A stretch of 64,000 nt of DNA from a virus (lineage: Duplodnaviria; Heunggongvirae; Uroviricota; Caudoviricetes), in IMG/VR virus record IMGVR_UViG_2875697941_000001; one strand, written 5' to 3'. The position numbers and the translations under genes are program-made. Within the stretch, counting starts at the first letter, position 1. The number at the start of each line of letters is the position of its first letter. Positions 31,091 to 59,928 of this stretch are shown here, one piece after another. The notes beneath the pieces were generated by a model. That model was not told the origin of the DNA and searched no databases. It saw only the letters and a list, made by a program, of their open reading frames with translations.

Positions 31091-34000
31091 TTATGCGTAT
31101 TGTTGGATGACGGCCAGAACGTCCGCCACGTTGTGTTTTGTCTCGATAATCCACCAGTTACCCGGGAAATCGCTGTTCTTCGCCTTCGCTGGCAGCCAGC
31201 GAGCGCCGAATTTCGCCTTGATTGCGTCTTTCGCACGGAAAAGAACGCCTTTCATGCCTGAGGCTTCCTGAAGCCCAAATACCTCGCCAGCGGCGAATTT
31301 CGGTGCGTACATCATCTTCAGGTCGGCGGTGGATACGCGATAATTCAGACCAAGAGACTGAGCTATGCTGGTGGCATCACCCTGTATTGATGATAACTCT
31401 TCTTGTTTCTCGTTTCTGGCGGCAATTTCTTCCTCCGTGATGTTGCCAAGGGCCAGGTTTATCCGATCAGCGTCGGCCTGTTTCTCTTCATCGGTGCGCC
31501 CGGCAAGAACCGTGTTAATTCTCTGCAATATCTCCACATGATTCTTGCGCATGCTGAGCAATTCCGGCGTAACCTCGTTAAGATCCACCAGCCCAAGGAT
31601 GGCAAGGTCGGAAAACATTGATACCAGGTTGTAGGTCATGCGATAGCTGAGTTGGCCATAGGCTGATGGCAACTGCACCGCATCCATTTGATAGGCATCC
31701 ATAAATTTAGAGCCGGCGTTTACGACATCCGCAATTGCAGGTGTGATTTTCCCTGTGGTGGCGGCCTCCCTGATTGCTGTTACCCACGATTGAGTCAGTG
31801 CGGCGACTGCATGATTCAGATTGGCTTCCCGTTCTGCTGCGATGCGCGCGTTTGCTGCGTCCATTGCCTGCTTGATCTCGGCTTTATTGCTGTAAATGCC
31901 AATGGTGCCAAACTGTGCTGTGGTGATCTCATAATCTGACGCCCGGAACTCATGGGTACCGAAAATGGCATTGGTGACCTCAAGTTCAGAATCCCCGTTA
32001 CGAGTAGCCCCCTGGCTTGTTTTCTCCGGCATTTTTGCGATCGCATCCGCTATTTTCTCCTGAATTGCTTCAGGGGATAGCGTATCTCCGTATGACGCGA
32101 TTACATCGCCATAATTGGAGCCAAACAATTCAACCAGGAATGTTTCTGCCGAACGGATCTGGCGGTTATTCCCTTCCGACATCATACCAAGCACCCATTT
32201 TGCAATTGACGACTTCAGCGCGCCGTCACGGCGATCCGGGTAAACCGCATGCTTCAGTGGGTCCGTATAGGTACCAACAAAATCAATGCTATAGCCTGAC
32301 TCTGTAGTCTGAACGCCGTATGAGTCAGTGATTTTGATCATGCCGCGCTGCTGGAAACGGTAGAAATCGTCACAGGAAATGATGTCGTTAATCCCGGCGA
32401 TGGAGACGCCACCACTGATTTTCTGCATAACAGCATCTTCATCGGGAGTTACATCCACCTGTTTATCCAGCGTCTTCACATCCCAGTTACCCGATTTGGT
32501 GCCTCTTAAGGTAAAGATGATCTCCACGTCTGCGCGCTGGCTGTCGAAGTCCAGCGACTTAATGCGAACGATATCACCGGCACAATCGTAGTATTGGCCT
32601 ACACGCCATGAGCGATCGCCGATAACAAGGAACTCATTCGCATGGTTAACCAGATCAGGATCAACATCCAGAATGCCTTTATTTATTGCATCCTCCACCA
32701 GCGGGCGCAGGCGTTTGATATCCGTCGCGGCCTTCTGAGTACGGTTCAATAATTTCTCATAGCGGGAGATGGCCTGAGAGATATTAGCCTTGCGCTGAAT
32801 GGCGCTTTTCAACGACGCGCGATACTGTGCTAACAACATACGGTCTGTGTGATGGACACTCCCCCAGCGGGCCTTCCAGTCTGCGTTATCCGCTGCCTTG
32901 GCCATTGCCGCCTGTTTGAATTTAGCTACCTCGGCGGTGGTCTTTTCAAGTTCCGCTTTGCTTCGCTCTAATTCAGCGGTAAGTACCTCCACATCCTCGC
33001 CAGCTGCGTGCTGCGCCTTGATGTAGTTCTGAAGGTCGATAGTAGCCTGTTCTTTCTGGCGAGCGCGTTTCGCAGCTTTCGCCTTATCCATTTGAACCTG
33101 CATCATTGCCAGACGTTCGCCGTCATCCTTCGCGGTATACATCTGCATTTCGATCATGTCATTGGCGTCGGCGTTCTCCATTTCTGACTTATCTGAACGG
33201 AGGATATCGGAGATCCAGCCTGCTTTACGCTTCAGCGTCTTCAGTCGGTATTCATCGAAAGACCCCTTGCCGCAGTAGTAGTGAACGCGAACGCTTGCAC
33301 GGTTGGAACCAACTCGGGCACCGCGACCGTTACGCTGTGCGATACTGGCTGGTGTCCACGGCAACGTCAGGTGGTGGATATCCGTCGTTCCTCGATGCAG
33401 GTTGATACCCACCTCTGCCTTTTTGTTGCAGATGATGATCGGAGTCCGGCCCTCCTGGAAGTCGGCTGCAATCTTTTCCAGACCGCCCAACGACATTTCA
33501 TTTTGCTGCGCGATATAGGCGTCATACAGAGCCATTTGCTCGTTGTATTTCGCTATCTGTGCATCTGTTGGTTCATCCGGTAGCTCTTTCGGCGGTTTAA
33601 CCGCTTTCAGTTTCTTACCGGTTTTACCTGCCTCGGCAACCGTCTGAGCATTCAGGATCCCCACCTTTGAAGGTTCAAGGTTTAGAGCATTGCAGATAAT
33701 GCGCTTGAGCTTCTGGTGCTGCGTTTTTTCATCGGTGAAGATGATTTGCTTACCTTCCGGGAAAAACTCCTTCAGCGTGGCGATCAGCTTCGCGTATTTG
33801 GGCGTAACGGGGTGAGTTACGGTCTGTTCGTCAATGCCAAACCTGGCCAGGCGCTTATTCACTTCCTGCTCGAACGCTTCCGGAACCTGCAACTGAATAA
33901 ACTCGCCCTTATCTATCAGGGAGTATTGCGATTGCTGCGTGATTGAATCATCACTGTCGTCGTCTTCGCTGGTGGCTTGTTTAGGCAAACTGTCCGCCAG

Positions 34001-43356: not shown

Positions 43357-44661
43357 ATGGCTATACATGCAACAACAATCCGTAATTTGCTCAATCAAGG
43401 TCCTATGACACCAAGACAATTGGTTGAAAGACTAGGTGTTAGCCAACCAACGATATCTAGAGCATTAAGAGATCTTGGTGATGAAATCGTTAGGATCGGA
43501 AATGGAAGATCTATTCAATATGCTTTACGAGACTCTTTTAGAGGATTCGAATCAGTCCCCATTTATCGTATAACTGAAGAGGGGTGTATTTGCGTTCTTG
43601 GTACTCTCATTCCGGTGAGGCCAGAAGGCTATGTTATGGTTGAGGAAGGGAAAAATAACAGGCATAGCGATGGGTTACCTTGGTGGTTATTTGATATGCG
43701 TCCACAAGGCTTCCTTGGAAGAGCATATGCATCAGCATATGCTCTTGAACTTAACCTTCCCTCAAATCCAGAGCAATGGTCAGATACTGACGTGATCAAA
43801 GCCTTACTTAAGCATGGGCATGATGTTGTTGGTAATTTGTTAATTGGAGAGCAAGCACGCACGCATTTTTTAGAGATGCAGCCTCCTGTTCCTGTTAATC
43901 GTGAAAGTGAATATCCTGTATTAGCTTTAGCTGCTGGTGAAGGTGATGTGCCCGGTTCATCTGCTGGAGGTGAACAACCCAAATTTTGTACTTTCACAGA
44001 GCGTGGACATGTATTAGTGAAATTCTCTGCGCCTAACGACACCCCTATAAGTGAGCGTTGGAGAGATCTCTTGTTTGCTGAACATCTCGCATTAAAAGTT
44101 CTGGGGGTAGAAACAGAAGTTTTTGATTATAACGGTCAGAGATTCTTGGAAATTCCCCGATTTGATCGTGTTGGTCAACTAGGTCGGGTAGGTGTATTCT
44201 CACTTCGTGCACTTGATGCAGAATTTGTTGGGAATGCAAGAGCAACATGGCCCTTGCTGGTTAAAGAGTTGGTAAAAAATAAGTGCGTCCATCCTGATGC
44301 GATTATTATAGCAACAAGGCTATGGTCTTTTGGTTTGCTAATAGGCAATACCGATATGCATAATGGTAACCTATCGTTTATTAGTAGCCACGGACGCCCA
44401 TATCATATTGCTCCAGCCTATGACATGTTACCTATGGGTTTTGCTCCACGCTCTGGGGGAGCAATATCTAATGAGCTTAGAAAAACAGCACTACCAGACT
44501 TTGTAAGTCGAAAAATATGGGATGAATCTCTTGAATTGGCTGAAAAATTTTATGCATTGGCCTGTGAGTCCGACAAATTCTCAGCTAACTTTACTCCATG
44601 TTTAGAAGCGCTACGCATCCACCTAGATGATTGTAAGATACGCATAGCCCGCCTGGCATAA
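43357..44661 (+). CDS. HipA-family Ser/Thr kinase with N-terminal HTH (YjjJ/HipH-like toxin-type kinase)
   Basis: HTH MTPRQLVERLGVSQPTISRAL; P-loop-like SSAGGEQPKF; catalytic GNTDMHNGNLSF (D-x-H-x-x-N); low-GC; ATG 43357 chosen over upstream in-frame ATG 43297. Confidence 0.8.
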   Translation: MAIHATTIRNLLNQGPMTPRQLVERLGVSQPTISRALRDLGDEIVRIGNGRSIQYALRDSFRGFESVPIYRITEEGCICVLGTLIPVRPEGYVMVEEGKNNRHSDGLPWWLFDMRPQGFLGRAYASAYALELNLPSNPEQWSDTDVIKALLKHGHDVVGNLLIGEQARTHFLEMQPPVPVNRESEYPVLALAAGEGDVPGSSAGGEQPKFCTFTERGHVLVKFSAPNDTPISERWRDLLFAEHLALKVLGVETEVFDYNGQRFLEIPRFDRVGQLGRVGVFSLRALDAEFVGNARATWPLLVKELVKNKCVHPDAIIIATRLWSFGLLIGNTDMHNGNLSFISSHGRPYHIAPAYDMLPMGFAPRSGGAISNELRKTALPDFVSRKIWDESLELAEKFYALACESDKFSANFTPCLEALRIHLDDCKIRIARLA

Positions 44662-50885: not shown

Positions 50886-51306
50886 CCTGTGCGAGATTTA
50901 TTACGTAACTTCTGCGGATTTGCTGAGTAACAGGGAAAATCCGATACAACGGGTTAATGAACGAGTCGCCATGCGTAACCATGATGTTGAAATGCCACAG
51001 TCGCTCTCCTTTACCCATATATTCAGTGGGTATGTACAACCATTCACTGTTTTCGCCCTGTTCAGCCGACGTCAGACAACGTTGTTCACCTTCAATCACT
51101 GTCGTCGGCTTCTGAACATCGCGGATCCAATATCTGACCGTTGCGCCGCGCAAAAACGGGAATTTAGACCGGTACTTGAACGGCACCCGGATGAAACCCG
51201 GTTTAATTTCCACATCACCAAGTTCTAAATGCGTGATGTCCTTGCGTTTTAGCAAATAGCGATCGGCTAAGGCTAACGCAAGAACGCATACACCCCAGCC
51301 AATCAT
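50863..51306 (-). CDS. hypothetical protein (lyd-region)
   Basis: 147-aa ORF overlapping neighbours on both sides. Confidence 0.5.
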   Translation of the reverse strand: MIGWGVCVLALALADRYLLKRKDITHLELGDVEIKPGFIRVPFKYRSKFPFLRGATVRYWIRDVQKPTTVIEGEQRCLTSAEQGENSEWLYIPTEYMGKGERLWHFNIMVTHGDSFINPLYRIFPVTQQIRRSYVINLAQDVSDDEK

Positions 51307-51632
51307 TTCCCGCCTCCCTTTTTCACCAAACTTGTAAGAACATTCAGAATGCTATCGATATTCACTCGTTTCATCCCTGAAATCACCTCATGACCGTTAT
51401 TGCTGGCTATCGTTACCATTAAGTACGTAATTGATAACTCCCAGCCCTCGTGTTGCCCCAATAGGTACGCCACCGCGCCAGCTGTCACTGCAACAAAGAT
51501 CTCCGTAACCAATCCCAACAAATTGCCAGACTGGCGACCGTCTCGGACATCCATCAGGAACGTGCCTATCCCACCAATTACTGAAAGCAGGAGCGCAATA
51601 GCAACTGGAGCTAATTCCTGTGTGTCAAGCAC
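51303..51632 (-). CDS. small membrane protein, holin-like
   Basis: 109 aa, two to three hydrophobic helices; paralogous to 51700-51981. Confidence 0.5.
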   Translation of the reverse strand: MLDTQELAPVAIALLLSVIGGIGTFLMDVRDGRQSGNLLGLVTEIFVAVTAGAVAYLLGQHEGWELSITYLMVTIASNNGHEVISGMKRVNIDSILNVLTSLVKKGGGK

Positions 51633-51699
51633 AAGTTCCCTCCTACGTTGTCAGGAGGTAATGGTATGCAAAGTAACTTCTCAACCGGTCATTTGTTGC

Positions 51700-51981
51700 T
51701 TAAGAGGCATTTCTATTGAGGTACGAATCGATAATCCTTTGTAACTTTTCAAGAATGAGCCTGTTATTGATGCTGCAAATAATAGTCACGCAATTCTGAA
51801 GACTTTCATCCATACCCTTATATTCCGCGAAATACATGCCTATAAAGCCTGCAAGTACGGCAGCAATACACTCGGCCATCAATTGCCTGTATGACGCTTC
51901 GTAACGTTTTTCACGAACCCCATTCAGAAACGAATGCACCCCGCCAAGGATGGAGAGGAGCATTATTGTGAAATCACACAT
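51700..51981 (-). CDS. small membrane protein, holin-like paralogue
   Basis: 93 aa; aligns with 51303-51632 product (LSxxGGxxxFLxxVRxxR...AxxAGxxxxYxxxxG). Confidence 0.5.
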   Translation of the reverse strand: MCDFTIMLLSILGGVHSFLNGVREKRYEASYRQLMAECIAAVLAGFIGMYFAEYKGMDESLQNCVTIICSINNRLILEKLQRIIDSYLNRNAS

Positions 51982-52108
51982 AACTATTTCCTTAATAGTG
52001 AATTAAATATCATTGGGAAACGGTATGTACTTTGTGATTTCCACACATACTGGTTTTTGTTAATTAAAATCCGCAGCTTGCTATAAATAACGATAGTGAG
52101 CAGAAAAT

Positions 52109-52410
52109 ATGCTAATAGGCTATGTACGCGTATCAACAAATGAACAAAACACTGCTTTACAACGAAACGCTCTTGAAAGCGCAGGATGTGAGCTAATTTT
52201 TGAGGACAAGGCGAGTGGAAAAAAGGCTGAACGACCAGAGTGAAAAAGGCTTTTGATAGGTAAACTCTGGTCGTATGAAAGTTAAATTTGCGTGGGTGCA
52301 GCATGCGCTCACTCTTGAGGCATGAACGGTAATCATCTGATAACTTGTAGCTCGATTATCCGGACGCACTGGAACCAGTCGATGCTTCCAGCGATCCAGA
52401 TATTTCATTA
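52109..52410 (+). pseudogene. cin: cin-type serine invertase pseudogene
   Basis: first 43 codons intact ([43 protein letters not shown], catalytic Ser in VRVST) then stop; downstream homology (KKAFDR, TLVV, KLNLRGCSMRSLLRHER) scattered over three frames; C-terminal DNA-binding half absent. Confidence 0.8.
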
Positions 52411-52416
52411 AATGGA

Positions 52417-52827
52417 CTACGCCTCCGGGAACGCTGGCCAATTGACATCTGGTGCAGTGCTGGTATCCGTTGCGGTCACCGCATCGATATAATCCAGCAC
52501 AGCGTTAAGACGGGTGGTTTCAGCCTGCGTAAGATTCCGCCCGGCCTGTAATTTCAGTTGAATAAGACTAATGGAAGCCATTGCGGTATCAATCAGCGAC
52601 TGTTTTTTCTGTTCAGCGTCAGCTACCAGTTCATCATGAGAACGTTCCGGAGTGGGTGGCGCAGTAAATCCCCCGTCTGAATACACCCAGCCGATTCCGG
52701 GCTGCTCACTGATATCAGAAATATTAATGAGCTGCTGATTATCCGGCACTGTGAATTCAGCCTCGCCATCCCAGACAATGACATTCACAACCATCCCATT
52801 TTCAATAACTGCATATGATGTATTCAT
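52417..52827 (-). CDS. tail-fibre assembly protein (U / Tfa)
   Basis: C-terminal RLNAVLDYIDAVTATDTSTAPDVNWPAFPEA matches Tfa signature; start overlaps S stop; track ORF extends to 52851. Confidence 0.8.
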   Translation of the reverse strand: MNTSYAVIENGMVVNVIVWDGEAEFTVPDNQQLINISDISEQPGIGWVYSDGGFTAPPTPERSHDELVADAEQKKQSLIDTAMASISLIQLKLQAGRNLTQAETTRLNAVLDYIDAVTATDTSTAPDVNWPAFPEA

Positions 52828-55800
52828 TATGCAAACTCCTCGATAATACAAATCCCTGCAGCGCCTTTCCCGCCCGTCATACTGGTTCCGCTATAACCGG
52901 CATCGTATGCACCACCGCCGCCCGAACCATATGCCCGACCGATAACGCCACCGCCAGCGCCTGCGCGACCACCGCCCCCCCAGAACGATGATCCTCCTTC
53001 ACCACTGACGCTGATATTTCCGGACTGACCGTCACCTCCATGCCCACCAATAATGCGGACATCACCAGTATTCGGCGCGCCTCCATTACCACCGTTCGTG
53101 TTTGTGACTCCTACTTTCCCGCCGCCTTCACCGCCAGGGGCTATTACCGTTCCGAACGAGCTATCACCGCCCTTGAGGCCGTTCGTCGCACCAACACCGC
53201 CGCCCCCACCTGCGCCGATAGTGACTGGATAACTATTCTGTGTCGGGGTCATTATTGAAATTATTGTCCCACCGGCCCCACCGCCAGCACCGAAAAACGT
53301 CTCGTTATTGGATGTAGCCTGGCAGCCACCACCTCCGCCACCGCCGCCCGTAATTGTGACCCTGATTCGTTTTGTTCCTGGCGTCGGGGTATACGTACCT
53401 GATGAAGTGAAAACCCGGGTATTCACCAAACGCCCAACATATCCGCTTGAATCGCTCAGGCCAAGGTTAGCAGCAGTTAAAGTAATATTTGCAGAACCAT
53501 CAAACTTAACACCGTTGATAGTGCGTGCAGTCTGTAGTTTCGTTGCGGTTGCGGCATTACCGGTAGTGCTCTGATTACCTGCTTTATTCACGCCCGGCAG
53601 GTCGATATTGGCACTACCATCGAATGACACTCCGCCTATTGTGCGTGCTGTTTGCAGTTTTGTTGCAGTTGCAGCATTGCCGGTAGTGCTCTGATTACCT
53701 GTTTTATTCACGCCCGGCAGGTCGATATTGGCACTACCATCAAATGACACCCCGCCGATTGTGCGTACTGTTTGCAGTTTCGTAGCGGTTGCAGCATTGC
53801 CGTTCAAACTACCATTGATGCCGCCAGTAACATTGAGTCCATTACCGATCGTAACAGTACCATTGGCATTGTTAATGATAAGCGGCCTTAAATTATTATA
53901 GGTTCCCAGGCTGTTACCCGAATTGGTCAACATGAAATATGTGTTTGAACCATCGTTTCGGATAAAGAATCCGTAGTTTCCGTAGGCAATGCGCAGACCA
54001 TTCGCCGATTTTGAAATGATCTCACCAGTAGCCGTTAAACCGCCGTTGAGATTTCCTCCGGTTATTGGTAATGCGCCGACATCCGTGGCGGTCGGTTTAA
54101 TGTGCGAACTGTAAATTACATATACAGTTCCATCTGTCAGGCCTGTTGGTTTATTCGCTGTATAAGATGGTGATGTATGAATCGTTACGCTGGCGTTACT
54201 GGTATAATCCCACTGAATATTAACACGTGTGGTGTAATTACCTATTTCAACATAAACATCATAGGTATCACCGGATGTATTCACCCATGCAAAATTAGTA
54301 AATCCAACCGATGTCCGTCGCCATAACGCACCAGTAAGACCTTTTGGATTCCCATTTCCCGCACGAAGAACAAGTTCAGATATACCAGCCTGCATAGGGG
54401 AGTTAACATTATATCCAGAACCACCAATCAGGCTTATGTAAACCACGGAACTGGACTGTGGCATGGTTACAGTTGCCAGCTTGAACCATCCAGTACCACC
54501 ACTAAAAGACATTGTTGTTGAGTTGATCGTGCCTATAGACCTTGGAGTTAGCTCAATGTTTTTAGAACCGTCAAACAACACCCCATTTATAGTTCTAGCG
54601 GTTTGTAACTTGGTCGCTGTCGCTGCATTACCGGATGTATTCTGATTACCCGCAACGTTAACACCAGGTAAATTAATATTCGCAGTACCATCAAAGCTAA
54701 CTCCGCCGATAGTTCTTGCCGTCTGTAGTTTTGTAGCAGTTGCCGCATTGCCAGTTGTATTCTGATTGCCAGTGGCATTCACACCAGGAATGGAGTCCCT
54801 TGATGTATATACCTGCGCCCACGCTGACCATGCCGCATCAGTGTGATCTCTTCGGGAGCGAATGAAAACCGGCGCATGTGCACCGCTCGTACCACTCCAG
54901 CCAATAAGCAACTCGCCCTCACCAGCAGCACTCGCACCTTTCATGTGCAATACGTTGCCATACGCGGTCGGGTAGCTATTGTTGTACGCCTCATACATCT
55001 GCAATCCAGTAGCAGCACCTTGTGTTGTATCGGTGAGCGCAGTAACACGCCCTCTGGACGTAATTGTTGGTATCGAAATGTTCGCAGAACCATCAAACTT
55101 AACACCGTTGATTGTGCGTGCTGTTTGCAGTTTTGTAGCAGTTGCAGCATTGCCGGTAGTGCTCTGATTACCTGCTTTATTCACGCCCGGCAGGTCGATA
55201 TTGGCACTACCATCAAACGACACTCCGCCGATTGTGCGTGCTGTTTGCAGTTTTGTGGCGGTGGATGCATTACCTGTCAAAGATCCACTAAGAGCCACGG
55301 CACTAAGAGACTTAACACTTACATCCTGACCCCATCCGGAAACAACAACCTGACTCCACGCTGTCCAGTTTCCATTAACAACAAAGCGAACGTATATACG
55401 TTTTGTGTCGCTGTTAATCAGCGTTTGCATGTTCGCATAATCTGATCCCGTAGTCTTACGAATCGACTCTACACGAACCAAAAAGTTACCGCTTACGCCG
55501 TCAGGCTTATTGGTAATATTTGCACCACCTGCGACAGTTTTGCATTGATAGTATTTAACGGATCCAGCTTCTGTATTAGCAATAATCAAGTCGTTTAAAT
55601 CAATAGCCCGGCCGTCAATGGCTTCCGGCTCGATGGCTCCTGCTATCCCGGCACTGAATGTAGCAGCGGCTGAAAACGCTGTCTTACCTTTGAAAGTCTG
55701 TTGAGAACTCCAGGTATTAGCTGTGCTCAACAGGGGGATCTTTTCGCCGCTGGTTCCGATTTCTCTTAAACCAAGGTATTGGATAACAGCCAGTGTGCTT

Positions 55801-57134
55801 GTTTTAGCCAGGATATCGCGACCGACTGACGTTAAATCAGTCTGGGAAACAGTGTCTGTACCGGTAAAGTACGGCAATTTATTTGCGCCTGTCGCAAGAC
55901 CAGCAAGCGCGGTTAAAGTTGCATCCAGAGGCTGTTTGCCTGCCAGCGCATTTGTCATTGTTGTCGCAAAGTTCGGGTCATTGCCCAGTGCTGCTGCAAG
56001 CTCATTCAGGGTATCAAGAGCTTCAGGTGATGAGCCGACCAATGCAGAGATAGCAGCTCTTACATAAGCGGTCGTAGCAATCTGCGTGTTATTCGTACCC
56101 TGTGCAGCGGTAGGCGCAGTAGGTATTCCCGTTAATGCAGGACTTGCTAAAGGAGCTTTAAGAGCCAGAGCATTGTTGATAGTTGTGCTGAAATTCGGGT
56201 CGTTATTGATCGCAGCAGCTATTTCTTTAAGCGTATCCAGTGTGCCAGGTGCACCGTTGATAAGTGCCGTTACAGCTGCCTTAACAAAGGCTGTATTTGC
56301 GATCTGCGTGCTGTTTGTACCTTGCGCTGCCGTCGGCGCGGTTGGCGTTCCTGTCAGACTCGGGCTTTCTATTGGCGCTTTGGTATCAGCCAGCTCTTTT
56401 ACAGACTTAACGGCTTTAGGGGTAGCCGCCATTGTTTCGCTGTCGCTGTTAGTTGCGCTACTGAGCTGAACTAATCCCTTTTGTGTTGTGCTTGCATCCT
56501 GCGCCGTATACTTGCTTTTAGCCAGATCGTAGGCTTTTTTAACCGCCAGCGAACTTGCAGCGACATCACTTCTGGTACTGGTTACAGAGTCGGAAATTTC
56601 AATGCCTATCGCGAGATCGATGCGGTCGGATACATCTATCATTTCCTTAGTAATAGCAGATACGCCAGCAGGGATATTCACCGTACAAACAAGCAGTTCC
56701 CCATCTCCTAACTGATATGAATCGGTATAGGTTCTGGCAACAAATTCAGCCGCATGAATATGTGACGCGGTATTAACCTGATAAGAATCTTCTCCAAGGA
56801 GGTATCTTCCCTTCAGCACAATTGCATATTTCTTACCTGCGCTAAGTGCAAGAGAAATATCCTTACGCTGCTGAATAGTTACCTGGTAGAATTCACCAAT
56901 ATTCACTGACGCCGCGCCAGCGGTTTTATCACCATCCACTGAGGTGATTAACAGGTTCATCCCACCGCCAGGCTTAGGAAAAAAACCGGCATAAAATCCA
57001 GGGTCAACAATTCCCCTGAATTTTCGGTTTAGCGCGGCTGACAGATATGGTTCGTGGTATTGCACATCAGCCACCAGAGCCAACGACTCGGGTGATGGGT
57101 AAGTAACCGATGTGACAACTGTAACGTCATTCAT
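52827..57134 (-). CDS. tail-fibre protein S (constant N-part, long variable part with repeats and Gly-rich C-terminus)
   Basis: start taken at in-frame ATG after R-like stop (track ORF extends to 57221); cix-like site at codons 479-487; three blocks of about 34-aa repeats; C-terminal 170 aa about 45 percent Gly. Confidence 0.85.
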   Translation of the reverse strand: MNDVTVVTSVTYPSPESLALVADVQYHEPYLSAALNRKFRGIVDPGFYAGFFPKPGGGMNLLITSVDGDKTAGAASVNIGEFYQVTIQQRKDISLALSAGKKYAIVLKGRYLLGEDSYQVNTASHIHAAEFVARTYTDSYQLGDGELLVCTVNIPAGVSAITKEMIDVSDRIDLAIGIEISDSVTSTRSDVAASSLAVKKAYDLAKSKYTAQDASTTQKGLVQLSSATNSDSETMAATPKAVKSVKELADTKAPIESPSLTGTPTAPTAAQGTNSTQIANTAFVKAAVTALINGAPGTLDTLKEIAAAINNDPNFSTTINNALALKAPLASPALTGIPTAPTAAQGTNNTQIATTAYVRAAISALVGSSPEALDTLNELAAALGNDPNFATTMTNALAGKQPLDATLTALAGLATGANKLPYFTGTDTVSQTDLTSVGRDILAKTSTLAVIQYLGLREIGTSGEKIPLLSTANTWSSQQTFKGKTAFSAAATFSAGIAGAIEPEAIDGRAIDLNDLIIANTEAGSVKYYQCKTVAGGANITNKPDGVSGNFLVRVESIRKTTGSDYANMQTLINSDTKRIYVRFVVNGNWTAWSQVVVSGWGQDVSVKSLSAVALSGSLTGNASTATKLQTARTIGGVSFDGSANIDLPGVNKAGNQSTTGNAATATKLQTARTINGVKFDGSANISIPTITSRGRVTALTDTTQGAATGLQMYEAYNNSYPTAYGNVLHMKGASAAGEGELLIGWSGTSGAHAPVFIRSRRDHTDAAWSAWAQVYTSRDSIPGVNATGNQNTTGNAATATKLQTARTIGGVSFDGTANINLPGVNVAGNQNTSGNAATATKLQTARTINGVLFDGSKNIELTPRSIGTINSTTMSFSGGTGWFKLATVTMPQSSSVVYISLIGGSGYNVNSPMQAGISELVLRAGNGNPKGLTGALWRRTSVGFTNFAWVNTSGDTYDVYVEIGNYTTRVNIQWDYTSNASVTIHTSPSYTANKPTGLTDGTVYVIYSSHIKPTATDVGALPITGGNLNGGLTATGEIISKSANGLRIAYGNYGFFIRNDGSNTYFMLTNSGNSLGTYNNLRPLIINNANGTVTIGNGLNVTGGINGSLNGNAATATKLQTVRTIGGVSFDGSANIDLPGVNKTGNQSTTGNAATATKLQTARTIGGVSFDGSANIDLPGVNKAGNQSTTGNAATATKLQTARTINGVKFDGSANITLTAANLGLSDSSGYVGRLVNTRVFTSSGTYTPTPGTKRIRVTITGGGGGGGGCQATSNNETFFGAGGGAGGTIISIMTPTQNSYPVTIGAGGGGGVGATNGLKGGDSSFGTVIAPGGEGGGKVGVTNTNGGNGGAPNTGDVRIIGGHGGDGQSGNISVSGEGGSSFWGGGGRAGAGGGVIGRAYGSGGGGAYDAGYSGTSMTGGKGAAGICIIEEFA
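53472..53810 (-). repeat. coding tandem repeat block 3 in S (about 3 x 102-117 bp)
   Basis: repeated GNAATATKLQT(A/V)RTIGGVSFDGSANIDLPGVNK(A/T)GNQSTT units, residues about 1138-1250. Confidence 0.7.
54546..54779 (-). repeat. coding tandem repeat block 2 in S (2 units)
   Basis: same repeat family, residues about 815-892. Confidence 0.65.
55062..55274 (-). repeat. coding tandem repeat block 1 in S (2 units)
   Basis: same repeat family, residues about 650-720. Confidence 0.65.
55761..55786. other. cix/gix-like 26-bp crossover site inside S
   Basis: TTCTCTTAAACCAAGGTATTGGATAA resembles Din-family sites (gix/hix type, half sites around central AACCAAGGT); lies at S constant/variable junction. 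Confidence 0.6.
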
Positions 57135-57145
57135 CAAGCATATCC

Positions 57146-57580
57146 TTATGCTGTAGTCGTGTTTATGGCCATAACTGCGGTATATGTTTTGCCCACATAC
57201 AGCGAGTCTTCCTGGACACAAATAATGGCGATTGGCTTGTTCTCGTTATCCAGAACAACCAGAGTGTTGAATGGGTAGTTTTTCCCTTTCTGCAACTGGC
57301 TTTGATCAAGGTCCATTCGGACAGTAATTATCCCGCCTGAGTAGGTTGGGACGAGGTTGATGGTGCAAAATTTACTGGTCAGTTCTGCCAGATCGAAAGC
57401 CTTTGGCAGTTCTCCAATCTCATAAGTGCCATCTCCTTTCTTAGTAACCAGTGAACTGGTACCGAAAACGGCCTTGCTGATTAAAAATCGAGAGCCTTTG
57501 TTAATGGACGATTCAGCGCGCCGCTGATAGTAATAGTCCAACAACTGACTCTTATAGAGGTTTGTTGAGACGTCAGACAT
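57146..57580 (-). CDS. tail-fibre-associated structural protein (P1 R position)
   Basis: 144-aa ORF directly upstream of S. Confidence 0.55.
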   Translation of the reverse strand: MSDVSTNLYKSQLLDYYYQRRAESSINKGSRFLISKAVFGTSSLVTKKGDGTYEIGELPKAFDLAELTSKFCTINLVPTYSGGIITVRMDLDQSQLQKGKNYPFNTLVVLDNENKPIAIICVQEDSLYVGKTYTAVMAINTTTA

Positions 57581-57658
57581 GATTTTCCCTAATCAATGTT
57601 GTGAAGCCTCATTGTAAGAAAAGTAACTTGTCACCCCGCCCTGCGGACGGGGTGATTG

Positions 57659-58498
57659 TCAGGCGTCGCTATCCAGCAACAAATCATCTGCGCGTGTGCG
57701 ATCAAACGTAGGTGTCGCTTTCACAATAGTGCCACCAGGCGTTGCGGTGATCGGGGCGCTAATCGACGTAACTCCAGTAAGCGAAGTTGTATCCGAAGTT
57801 TCAAACCAGCAGTACGCTTTTTCGGTATCAGAAATCTCGTTCAAAGTGATCATGTCGGCCTGTTCATTCACAACAACCGACAAATAGAGCGTAAGCCCAT
57901 CAAACACTATATGCAGTGGCAGTAGAGGCTTTACGAACTGATTAAACTTTCTGAGAATTTCTTCTGTAATTGCGGACTGATCTATCGTGCCAGTAATACC
58001 CATTGTCCGGGCCAGGTCGTTTATGGGAATACTGATCATCCCTCTGGAAGTCAGAAACATCTCGCCGAATGTGCCGCCGGTAGTTTCCAGTGTGCTTTCT
58101 GGTATTAGAACTGTGCCATAGGGATGACGTTCAAGGTCCACCGGTGCATATATCGGATCCCATAAAACAGAAATACCATTAAATTCGCGGTAAATTGTCT
58201 GGTTTATAGGGCGTTCAGTCCCCTTAAAGTGAATCTCATCAAGCCGCTGTTGTAACAACATCGGAACGGAAGATGAGTTTGAGGTTCTGATAGTAAAGAA
58301 CTGGCCAAGTTCATTTGTCCTGGTCTCCAGATCCTCCTTGCTCATGGAAAAAATAGACTTCCGGTTGGTAATTCGCTCCAACCATGGGTCAACAAAGGTG
58401 TCCATCATTGACTGAACCAAATCAGCCAATGATTTATAGAGCAATGACTTTTGCTTAGCTGATGTAAGCCGATTATTAAACCAGGAACGTTGCATCAC
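57659..58498 (-). CDS. baseplate/tail structural protein (P1 gene 16 position)
   Basis: 279-aa ORF, start overlaps upstream gene. Confidence 0.6.
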   Translation of the reverse strand: MMQRSWFNNRLTSAKQKSLLYKSLADLVQSMMDTFVDPWLERITNRKSIFSMSKEDLETRTNELGQFFTIRTSNSSSVPMLLQQRLDEIHFKGTERPINQTIYREFNGISVLWDPIYAPVDLERHPYGTVLIPESTLETTGGTFGEMFLTSRGMISIPINDLARTMGITGTIDQSAITEEILRKFNQFVKPLLPLHIVFDGLTLYLSVVVNEQADMITLNEISDTEKAYCWFETSDTTSLTGVTSISAPITATPGGTIVKATPTFDRTRADDLLLDSDA

Positions 58499-59928
58499 TC
58501 CTCCTCATACGAAATATTAAAGGTGGAGTTTTCTGTATCCAGATAAACGAAATCGTAAAAGCCGTTGGACTCATTCCACTCGACAAATTCCAGATAAAAG
58601 TCGCGGAAATAACCCAGCGTTTCGATAAATGCCCAAACGTCTTTTTTCTTGATCAGGATGTACTTGCCGACACCGTTCGGATCAAAGAAATTTGAGTCGC
58701 GCCCAAATTTTGTTTCCAGTGCCGACTTCAACTCATCAGTCACGTTCTCAATAGTCAGGCTTGCCGATATCCGCCCGGTGATGGTTATCTTAAATGGTAG
58801 TTTTCTGACCTCTTTATAAGAGAATTTCTTGTTCAGTTCATTCGGTACCTTCTTAAAGGCAGTCAGGATCATTTCTTCAAGCTCTGACTGGCTTTTATTT
58901 GGATGCCATCCTGAAATAAATATCTTATTGATATTCTGAACATTATAAGCACCATCTAATTTCTCTTGCTGGCCTTCGCCCCATGCCTTTACCCAGGACA
59001 GCCCCGGGATGTTACGAACCAGAAAATACGTATAGTCCCCGCCCCATACGACCTGATCATCATAGGCAAGGTAATATTGTGCACGGTTACGTGTGATCTC
59101 CGTTGTTTCAGCATCGGTACCTGCGGTTATAGGTGTCGTTGTCTTAACTGAAATCAAATTAGCTAAATTAGCCGCAGAATCGACAGGCGTCAGGTTTTGG
59201 CCAGCAACCAGGGTTATATCGCCGTTGGTGCACCATACCTTAAGCGTAATTGTCGAACCTTCTGGCGGTATTTGCCCAATTAGCCCATCGCCGAATCGAA
59301 CCCCCAACTGCTCGGATGGTTTATAAAACTCAACGTAGACCTGGCTTTTACTACCGGCTAACCGGAACATAGTGCTGGAAGACCACTGCGTGGTCTTACC
59401 ATCGGTCGTCACGAATACTTCCAGCTTATAGCAGACAGCAGTAAGAGCCTTTGATAACACGACTTCCAGAAATTCTTTGGCTGCCGTAACGGTATATGTC
59501 ACCTCCTGGATTTCCAACTGTGCCACTTCTACCGTACCGGTGCCGTCAACCAACCTGCATACATCCATAGTCATGTAAGGGTACTGGTCGTCAGATATTA
59601 AAGGCATGTTTTTGGGGATTACCGCTGGGGCATCTTCACTTGTGGCGGTGATCTCAATCATCCCCGATGACGGTGTTGGCTTGGTACCAACGTAACTATT
59701 CGTTTCTGCCGCTGCCAGGATAGAGGAACGCCGCGTCGCGGTCGATATAAAGCCTTCAGCCAGCGCCGCATCGGCATACTGAAAGCACCTGTAGACAATC
59801 TGGGTAATAAACAATGTCAGCATCGAGACAAATTGAGAGCCGACAAACTTCGACCAGAATGAATCTTTCTCGACAAGCTCTTCAAACTCTGCACGAATAC
59901 TGTCTTTAGTCGGTGTTGTTTTACTCAT
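58495..59928 (-). CDS. baseplate protein (P1 bplA position; gpJ-like wedge)
   Basis: 477-aa ORF in tightly overlapped structural operon. Confidence 0.6.
   Translation of the reverse strand: MSKTTPTKDSIRAEFEELVEKDSFWSKFVGSQFVSMLTLFITQIVYRCFQYADAALAEGFISTATRRSSILAAAETNSYVGTKPTPSSGMIEITATSEDAPAVIPKNMPLISDDQYPYMTMDVCRLVDGTGTVEVAQLEIQEVTYTVTAAKEFLEVVLSKALTAVCYKLEVFVTTDGKTTQWSSSTMFRLAGSKSQVYVEFYKPSEQLGVRFGDGLIGQIPPEGSTITLKVWCTNGDITLVAGQNLTPVDSAANLANLISVKTTTPITAGTDAETTEITRNRAQYYLAYDDQVVWGGDYTYFLVRNIPGLSWVKAWGEGQQEKLDGAYNVQNINKIFISGWHPNKSQSELEEMILTAFKKVPNELNKKFSYKEVRKLPFKITITGRISASLTIENVTDELKSALETKFGRDSNFFDPNGVGKYILIKKKDVWAFIETLGYFRDFYLEFVEWNESNGFYDFVYLDTENSTFNISYEEE

Follow-up and report, generated by a model that had tools for sequence, protein, structure and literature searches.

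A P1-like phage-plasmid of Escherichia coli with a probably deletion-inactivated Cin/C-segment tail-fibre switch

The fibre locus and the cin remnant

We analysed a 64,000-nucleotide stretch of DNA (hereafter the window) in which a truncated cin gene, the decayed 3' end of a tfa' gene, the chaperone gene U and the tail-fibre gene S lie side by side (Table 1). The region around this locus is a P1-like phage-plasmid of E. coli. Its flanks match P1 at 94-100% identity with an identical gene order, and this synteny extends over the lysis, anti-restriction, tail-fibre and baseplate modules. When positions 51000-58600 were compared with the P1 locus by blastn, 51000-52313 and 55687-58600 were 97% and 95.7% identical, respectively, and between 52313 and 55687 just patchy similarity of 74-83% was found. 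In a megablast search, 51600-53000 hit 559 PLSDB plasmids as well as P1, the match to P1 (98.5%) comprising lydA-lydC plus the initial 139 nt of cin. In the P1 reference annotation (NC_005856), lydA and lydC (-) are followed by cin (31660-32220, +) and by cixL, which overlaps the cin stop; the C segment then holds Sv' (+), U' (+), U (-) and Sv (-), after which come cixR, Sc and R (-).

Table 1 Features of the tail-fibre locus in window coordinates
Feature	Position	Strand	Remarks
cin promoter P2cin	51987-52013	+	predicted; coordinate transfer from P1 annotation
cin promoter P1cin	52038-52070	+	predicted; coordinate transfer from P1 annotation
cin 5' fragment	52109-52243	+	44 codons and TGA; residues 1-43 as in P1 Cin
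orphan recombinational enhancer (sis)	52127-52198		cin nt 19-90; homologue of P1 31678-31749, identical columns
decayed cin remnant	52244-52321	+	about Cin codons 45-72; 77% identity to P1 in DNA alignment
deletion junction	52322-52340		no alignable homology to cin or tfa'
decayed tfa' (U'-type) 3' end	52341-52445	+	~105 nt, last ~34 codons; convergent with U and overlapping its 3' end
U, tail-fibre assembly chaperone	52417-52827	-	136 aa, intact; Pfam Caudo_TAP, E=3e-22
S, tail fibre	52827-57134	-	1435 aa, single open frame; Gp34_trimer domain, Gly_rich_2 tip
inner 74 bp of former invertible segment	55687-55760		P1-type; 86.7% to cixL-proximal arm of P1/pSBF45b
orphan cixR	55761-55786		TTCTCTTAAACCAAGGTATTGGATAA; 26/26 identical to P1 cixR
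R	57146-57580	-	first gene of R-S-U late operon; 99% identical to P1 R

A complete sister plasmid, pEC258-2 (NZ_CP097097.1; 90,559 bp), is 99.9% identical across all 64 kb of the window. Its annotation includes C1, Cre, pacA/B, parAB and repA-type genes, with Cre as the sole recombinase. A HipA-family toxin gene (yjjJ-like) is annotated at pEC258-2 3687-4991, corresponding to about 43357-44661 of the window. It lies directly downstream of an hxr homologue (CDS 5023-5331 of pEC258-2), at the position of the IS1/isaB variable region in P1.

The preliminary description of this locus held that cin is intact for only 43 codons and then frameshifted, with its C-terminal half absent, and our alignments bear out both points. 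The gene is clearly cin by origin, nt 1-115 being 98% identical to P1. A Din-family invertase should be encoded by a continuous frame of about 186 aa that includes the whole catalytic domain, but here 44 codons are followed by stops and frameshifts. Codon 44 carries a G-to-E change, and the TGA at 52241-52243 arises from the loss of one T relative to P1 cin. The Pfam Resolvase N-terminal domain covers only profile positions 2-51 of 145. Past the stop, the remnant has accumulated many substitutions and has lost 11 nt in one deletion and single nucleotides at two places, and in tblastn one of its frames reads TLVV*KLNLRGCSMRSLL where P1 Cin has TLVVWKLDRLGRSMRHLV. Cin residues ~75-186, including the C-terminal helix-turn-helix domain, left no trace in tblastn searches of the window (E<=100) or pEC258-2 (E<=1). 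The same searches found no intact invertase elsewhere in the window or in that plasmid, the remnant being the only hit; an intact cin elsewhere would have refuted the preliminary description. The exact endpoints of the lost part are blurred through decay at 52322-52340.

We considered whether the divergent remnant is a different cin allele and rejected this reading: the intact recombinase genes that PLSDB contains reach no more than about 71% identity to it, so the divergence reflects decay. In complete E. coli genomes, chromosomal genes homologous to the 5' part of cin (pinE and further 'recombinase family protein' genes) occur at a median of 2 places per genome.

Upstream, the 127-nt lydC-cin intergenic region is gapless and 100% identical to P1. 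By its identity to the P1 enhancer, the sequence within the cin fragment is predicted to be a Fis-dependent enhancer in cis. No Rfam match to a structured RNA was obtained in 51600-53000 at E<=1, and a promoter and terminator scan of 51650-52900 gave counts equal to shuffle expectation. Two antisense ORFs over the remnant (52193-52441 and 51984-52304, both -) were rejected as genes: they have no Pfam match, and their frames are broken in relatives by lineage-specific 1-nt and 18-nt indels.

Crossover sites, the tfa' vestige and the surviving fibre genes

Inversion of the Din type depends on an invertase, on an enhancer and on a pair of crossover sites placed in cis and inverted to each other. 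The preliminary description reported a single cix-like 26-bp site in S with no second, inverted copy, and both observations hold. The site is cixR, and it lies in frame within S, where it encodes residues 450-458 (VIQYLGLRE); because of this coding role it stays 26/26 in every relative examined. We searched both strands of the window and of the whole of pEC258-2 for a partner, using Hamming distance to cixL and cixR as well as the Din half-site consensus. Neither the 64 kb window nor the full 90.6-kb plasmid contained a second site. Against the Din consensus, cixR scored 17/18 and the next best score, 13/18, fell at four random-looking positions, which is chance level. A search of 51900-57300 found no inverted repeats of 16 nt or longer. 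The 74 bp just inside cixR would represent one arm of the old inverted repeat, its partner arm having probably been lost. Just upstream of cin, TTTCCACACATACTGGTTTTTGTTAA at 52038-52063 contains one good Din half-site (GGTTTTTGTTAA); this sequence overlaps the P1cin promoter position, scores 13/18, again chance level, and lies within the region 100% identical to P1.

Din invertases are interchangeable and can substitute for one another. Homologues of Din-type invertases such as pinE were carried by 3,670 of 5,426 complete E. coli genomes, and in the host species such enzymes are almost always available in trans. A host or co-resident prophage invertase of the Pin, Gin or Cin type might thus keep the switch working by using cixR together with a cryptic second site, and the intact sis sequence would suit such a reaction. 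We regard this explanation as highly improbable, since the best other sites in the window and the plasmid are those at chance level, no long inverted repeat is present, no alternative Sv'/U' exists to be expressed, and the sampled assemblies are all collinear. Host Din invertases would probably find no substrate here.

The cin remnant had been described as abutting the 3' end of U. This proved incorrect, as the tfa' vestige stands between the two. The vestige shows a TGG-to-TAG change and a 5-nt insertion. It reads (Y)NL*LDYPDALEPVDASSDPDI..., followed by the 5-nt insertion and ...TTPPGTLAN*, where the intact counterpart reads YNLWLDYLDALELVDTSGAPDIEWPTPPAVQAR*. Positions 52340-52428 match, at 78-80%, the tail-to-tail tfa/tfa' overlap of P2-like and Mu-like phages with invertible fibres. 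The vestige is dead and unusable as U'. The earlier statement that no inverted Sv'-U' pair is present therefore stands for the pair itself, but it overlooked what is left of another, inverted tfa gene, namely its decayed 3' end.

Both surviving fibre genes, U and S, are intact here, as they are in all dead-switch relatives that were sampled. U scores 79.5 bits against the Caudo_TAP profile (PF02413; cutoff 22.1) and lies directly 3' of the fibre gene, its ATG overlapping the S stop (TAATG). S combines a P1-type constant N-terminus with a non-P1 variable part containing 120-nt-period repeats. At 53484-55277, these comprise four copies, 72-100% identical, of a 201-nt direct repeat recurring with the 120-nt period. 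The number of fibre-shaft repeats varies between near-identical elements: pEC258-2 has exactly one 120-nt (40-aa) unit more than the window. No isolated phage in INPHARED contained the whole U/S-tip cassette. Over its full length, U was matched best in jumbo phage Goslar, by a tail-fibre assembly protein (68.6% aa); part of the S tip also has a match there, at 78%. In addition, plasmid prophages of a non-P1 kind, 43.7 kb long, carry the cassette (89% nt identity) along with Mu/P2-type baseplate genes, and have no adjacent invertase.

An intact comparator and the deletion model

A search of PLSDB for the U/S-tip cassette returned 57 records, most of them with matches starting inside the cin/tfa' remnant. 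An exception is the P1-like plasmid pSBF45b (NZ_CP067234.1, IncY), whose switch is apparently intact: it carries a 186-aa Cin, cixL, a P1-type Sv', a 178-aa U', the tfa' vestige, U, the S tip and cixR. It resembles the window in its backbone (94-96%), in U and the glycine-rich S tip (92.8%), in the tfa' vestige and in cixR. It differs in keeping Cin, cixL, Sv' and U', whereas the window lacks a 2,531-bp interval, 3431-5961 of the pSBF45b locus, which spans cin codon ~73 to the end of U'. As pSBF45b has this vestige too, beyond its intact U', the vestige is older baggage of the U cassette, and we rejected the idea that it was produced by the deletion that killed cin.

pSBF45b likely shows the layout of the ancestor, as a model of that ancestor and not a proven one. 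The ancestral order would have been cin - cixL - Sv' - U' -> <- U - Sv (glycine-rich) - cixR - Sc. Some 2.5 kb would have been deleted, comprising cixL, Sv', U' and the part of cin beyond about codon 72, and the remaining cin would have been degraded by the 11-nt frameshifting deletion and, later, by indels and point mutations. Left with a single crossover site that has no inverted partner, and lacking an invertase, the element should no longer be capable of site-specific inversion. Of the parts needed, just one site and the enhancer are still present, and the R-S-U late operon should therefore always express a single fibre, in which P1-type Sc is fused at cixR to the Sv with the glycine-rich tip, along with U. 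We are highly confident that a deletion-inactivated Cin/C-segment tail-fibre switch best explains the locus.

An alternative is that the lineage never had a working switch. A non-invertible Sv-U cassette with its tfa' stub may have come from another phage, P2-like, Mu-like or otherwise, and have replaced the C segment by recombination, truncating cin in doing so. The occurrence of the U/S-tip cassette in non-P1 contexts (the 43.7-kb prophages and, more distantly, Goslar) would agree with such a replacement, as would a tfa' vestige that predates the cin lesion, given its place beside intact U' in pSBF45b. Nevertheless, the window keeps cixR and 74 bp of the inner inverted-repeat arm, pSBF45b holds the same cassette inside an intact switch, and a cin remnant reaching codon ~72 with internal lesions fits decay after a deletion and not a clean replacement junction. 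This alternative thus seems quite unlikely. In the deletion model, we infer that the switch was present and then lost, not absent from the outset, and that the loss had a single origin.

The preliminary description further proposed that the element is locked on one tail-fibre specificity, and our results support this. Because S and U are intact in the window and in the relatives sampled, the element is probably fixed on one fibre. No second crossover site, intact cin or inverted Sv'/U' pair was found in the window, and no second site or intact cin in pEC258-2. The fibre is presumably expressed and functional, virions are presumably produced, and the fixed orientation is likely on present sequence evidence. 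Virions of this lineage should then have a single receptor specificity, and the transduction host range should therefore be narrower than that of P1, without phase variation. Although the practical consequence is modest, this bears on predicting the spread of resistance genes on phage-plasmids of this lineage.

Spread of the allele and comparison with known switches

In E. coli plasmids, the decayed allele is a common one. The 206-nt remnant was found whole in 44 PLSDB plasmids, 12 of them at >=99% identity and the rest at 79-83%. Among the carriers of this fibre in PLSDB, locked forms would thus far exceed invertible ones, with roughly 44 of 57 records compared with at least one that is intact (pSBF45b). 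Using a 361-nt probe from the cin start through the remnant to the U end (coverage >=80%), we detected the dead allele in 73 of 5,426 complete E. coli genomes. These numbers bear on a further explanation, that the frameshifts and the missing segment are artefacts of assembly or sequencing. AAAAA homopolymer runs do lie near two of the 1-nt indels, although nothing specific points to an error. Dozens of complete assemblies, made independently and with sources on several continents (humans, poultry, cattle, dogs, pigs, sewage), show the same architecture, and the shared lesions follow a phylogenetic pattern, which leaves this explanation with a negligible probability.

We aligned five independent carriers: the window, CP058619, CP029365, CP023381 and pSvP1. 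Common to all five are the junction, the deletion of 11 nt and a large number of substitutions. The two 1-nt deletions are private to the window; the other four carry an extra 18-nt deletion, and CP023381 has in addition a TTG-to-TAG nonsense codon and a 1-nt deletion of its own. As read from the alignment, this pattern appears to be that of one old inactivation followed by independent neutral decay. All sampled assemblies were collinear. The comparison with related phage-plasmids suggested in the preliminary description revealed the same dead allele in relatives and an intact switch with the same cassette in pSBF45b.

The flanks of CP058619 and CP029365 are D6-type (95.6% to phage D6), and outside 52107-56381 these two show little or no blastn similarity to the window; the dead cassette therefore occurs on both P1-type and D6-type backbones. 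In each carrier, the first ~115 nt of cin resemble the cin allele of its own backbone. Homologous recombination in Sc and in the conserved cin 5'/enhancer stretch could have brought about such an exchange between backbones. The fibre-inversion region has been described as the segment most shared between P1 and D6 (PMC6799933).

Divergence along the cassette is uneven. U is 99% identical in all sampled carriers, even across P1- and D6-type backbones, compared with ~85% for the cin remnant and 88-95% for the S tip, which suggests recent homogenisation or exchange of U alone. The locus is a mosaic, because the cin remnant differs by about 15% between carrier lineages and the adjacent U by about 1%, and a simple single-event history is an approximation. 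We tentatively raise the possibility, which we hold to be doubtful, that the locked module (cin stub - tfa' stub - U - glycine-rich Sv - cixR - distal Sc) is not just a relic in decay but is selectively favoured and spreads horizontally between P1-type and D6-type backbones. If true, this would suggest an advantage in giving up host-range switching, tied to the fibre type or to a mostly plasmid lifestyle.

Loss of the switch in P1-like plasmids is already known, including for this allele. Venturini et al. 2019 (PMC6906374) reported that pSvP1 has a partial invertase ORF and that the switch, and with it host-range flexibility, is presumably lost. Among the eight hypervariable regions that Zhao et al. 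2022 (PMC9603915) listed for P1-like plasmids is lydC-cin-Sv'-U'-U-S. Our results challenge nothing in current understanding; they add the precise anatomy, an intact-switch comparator, the prevalence and the distribution of the allele across backbones.

Compared with pSvP1 (MN510446), the window has the same dead allele with the same 11-nt deletion and cin/tfa' junction, and U and the S tip are 99.5% and 94.6% identical, respectively. pSvP1 differs in a further 18-nt deletion in the tfa' vestige, in point lesions of its own, its ORF stopping at codon ~53, and in large IS/F-plasmid insertions elsewhere. The contrast with the invertible C segment of P1 drawn in the preliminary description is correct, yet the allele itself had been described in pSvP1. 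With P1, the locus shares gene order, orientation, promoters, the enhancer (100%), Cin residues 1-43, cixR (26/26) and Sc and R (94-99%). In contrast to P1, cin is cut at codon 45 and gone beyond codon ~72, cixL, Sv' and a functional U' are missing, Sv and U differ in type from those of P1, the tip being glycine-rich, and the segment should be unable to invert.

Another variant of the P1-like switch, with intact cin, lies at 5736-9510 of pB1W1-p1 (NZ_CP117721.1). It has an Sv' of ~365 nt, a 144-aa short-type tfa', a 60-aa ORF replacing U and a 751-aa S, and its cix sites differ from those of P1 at 3 to 6 positions. The Mu Gin/G segment, the e14 Pin/P segment and the invertible fibres of P2-like prophages have convergent tfa/tfa' pairs with overlapping 3' ends. 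Unlike in the locus described here, the invertase of these systems is intact, and the two tfa genes and two fibre tips are kept. Within the P1-like plasmids, pSBF45b, with its intact switch, and the present locked element, with the same fibre, offer a natural comparison for the value of the switch.
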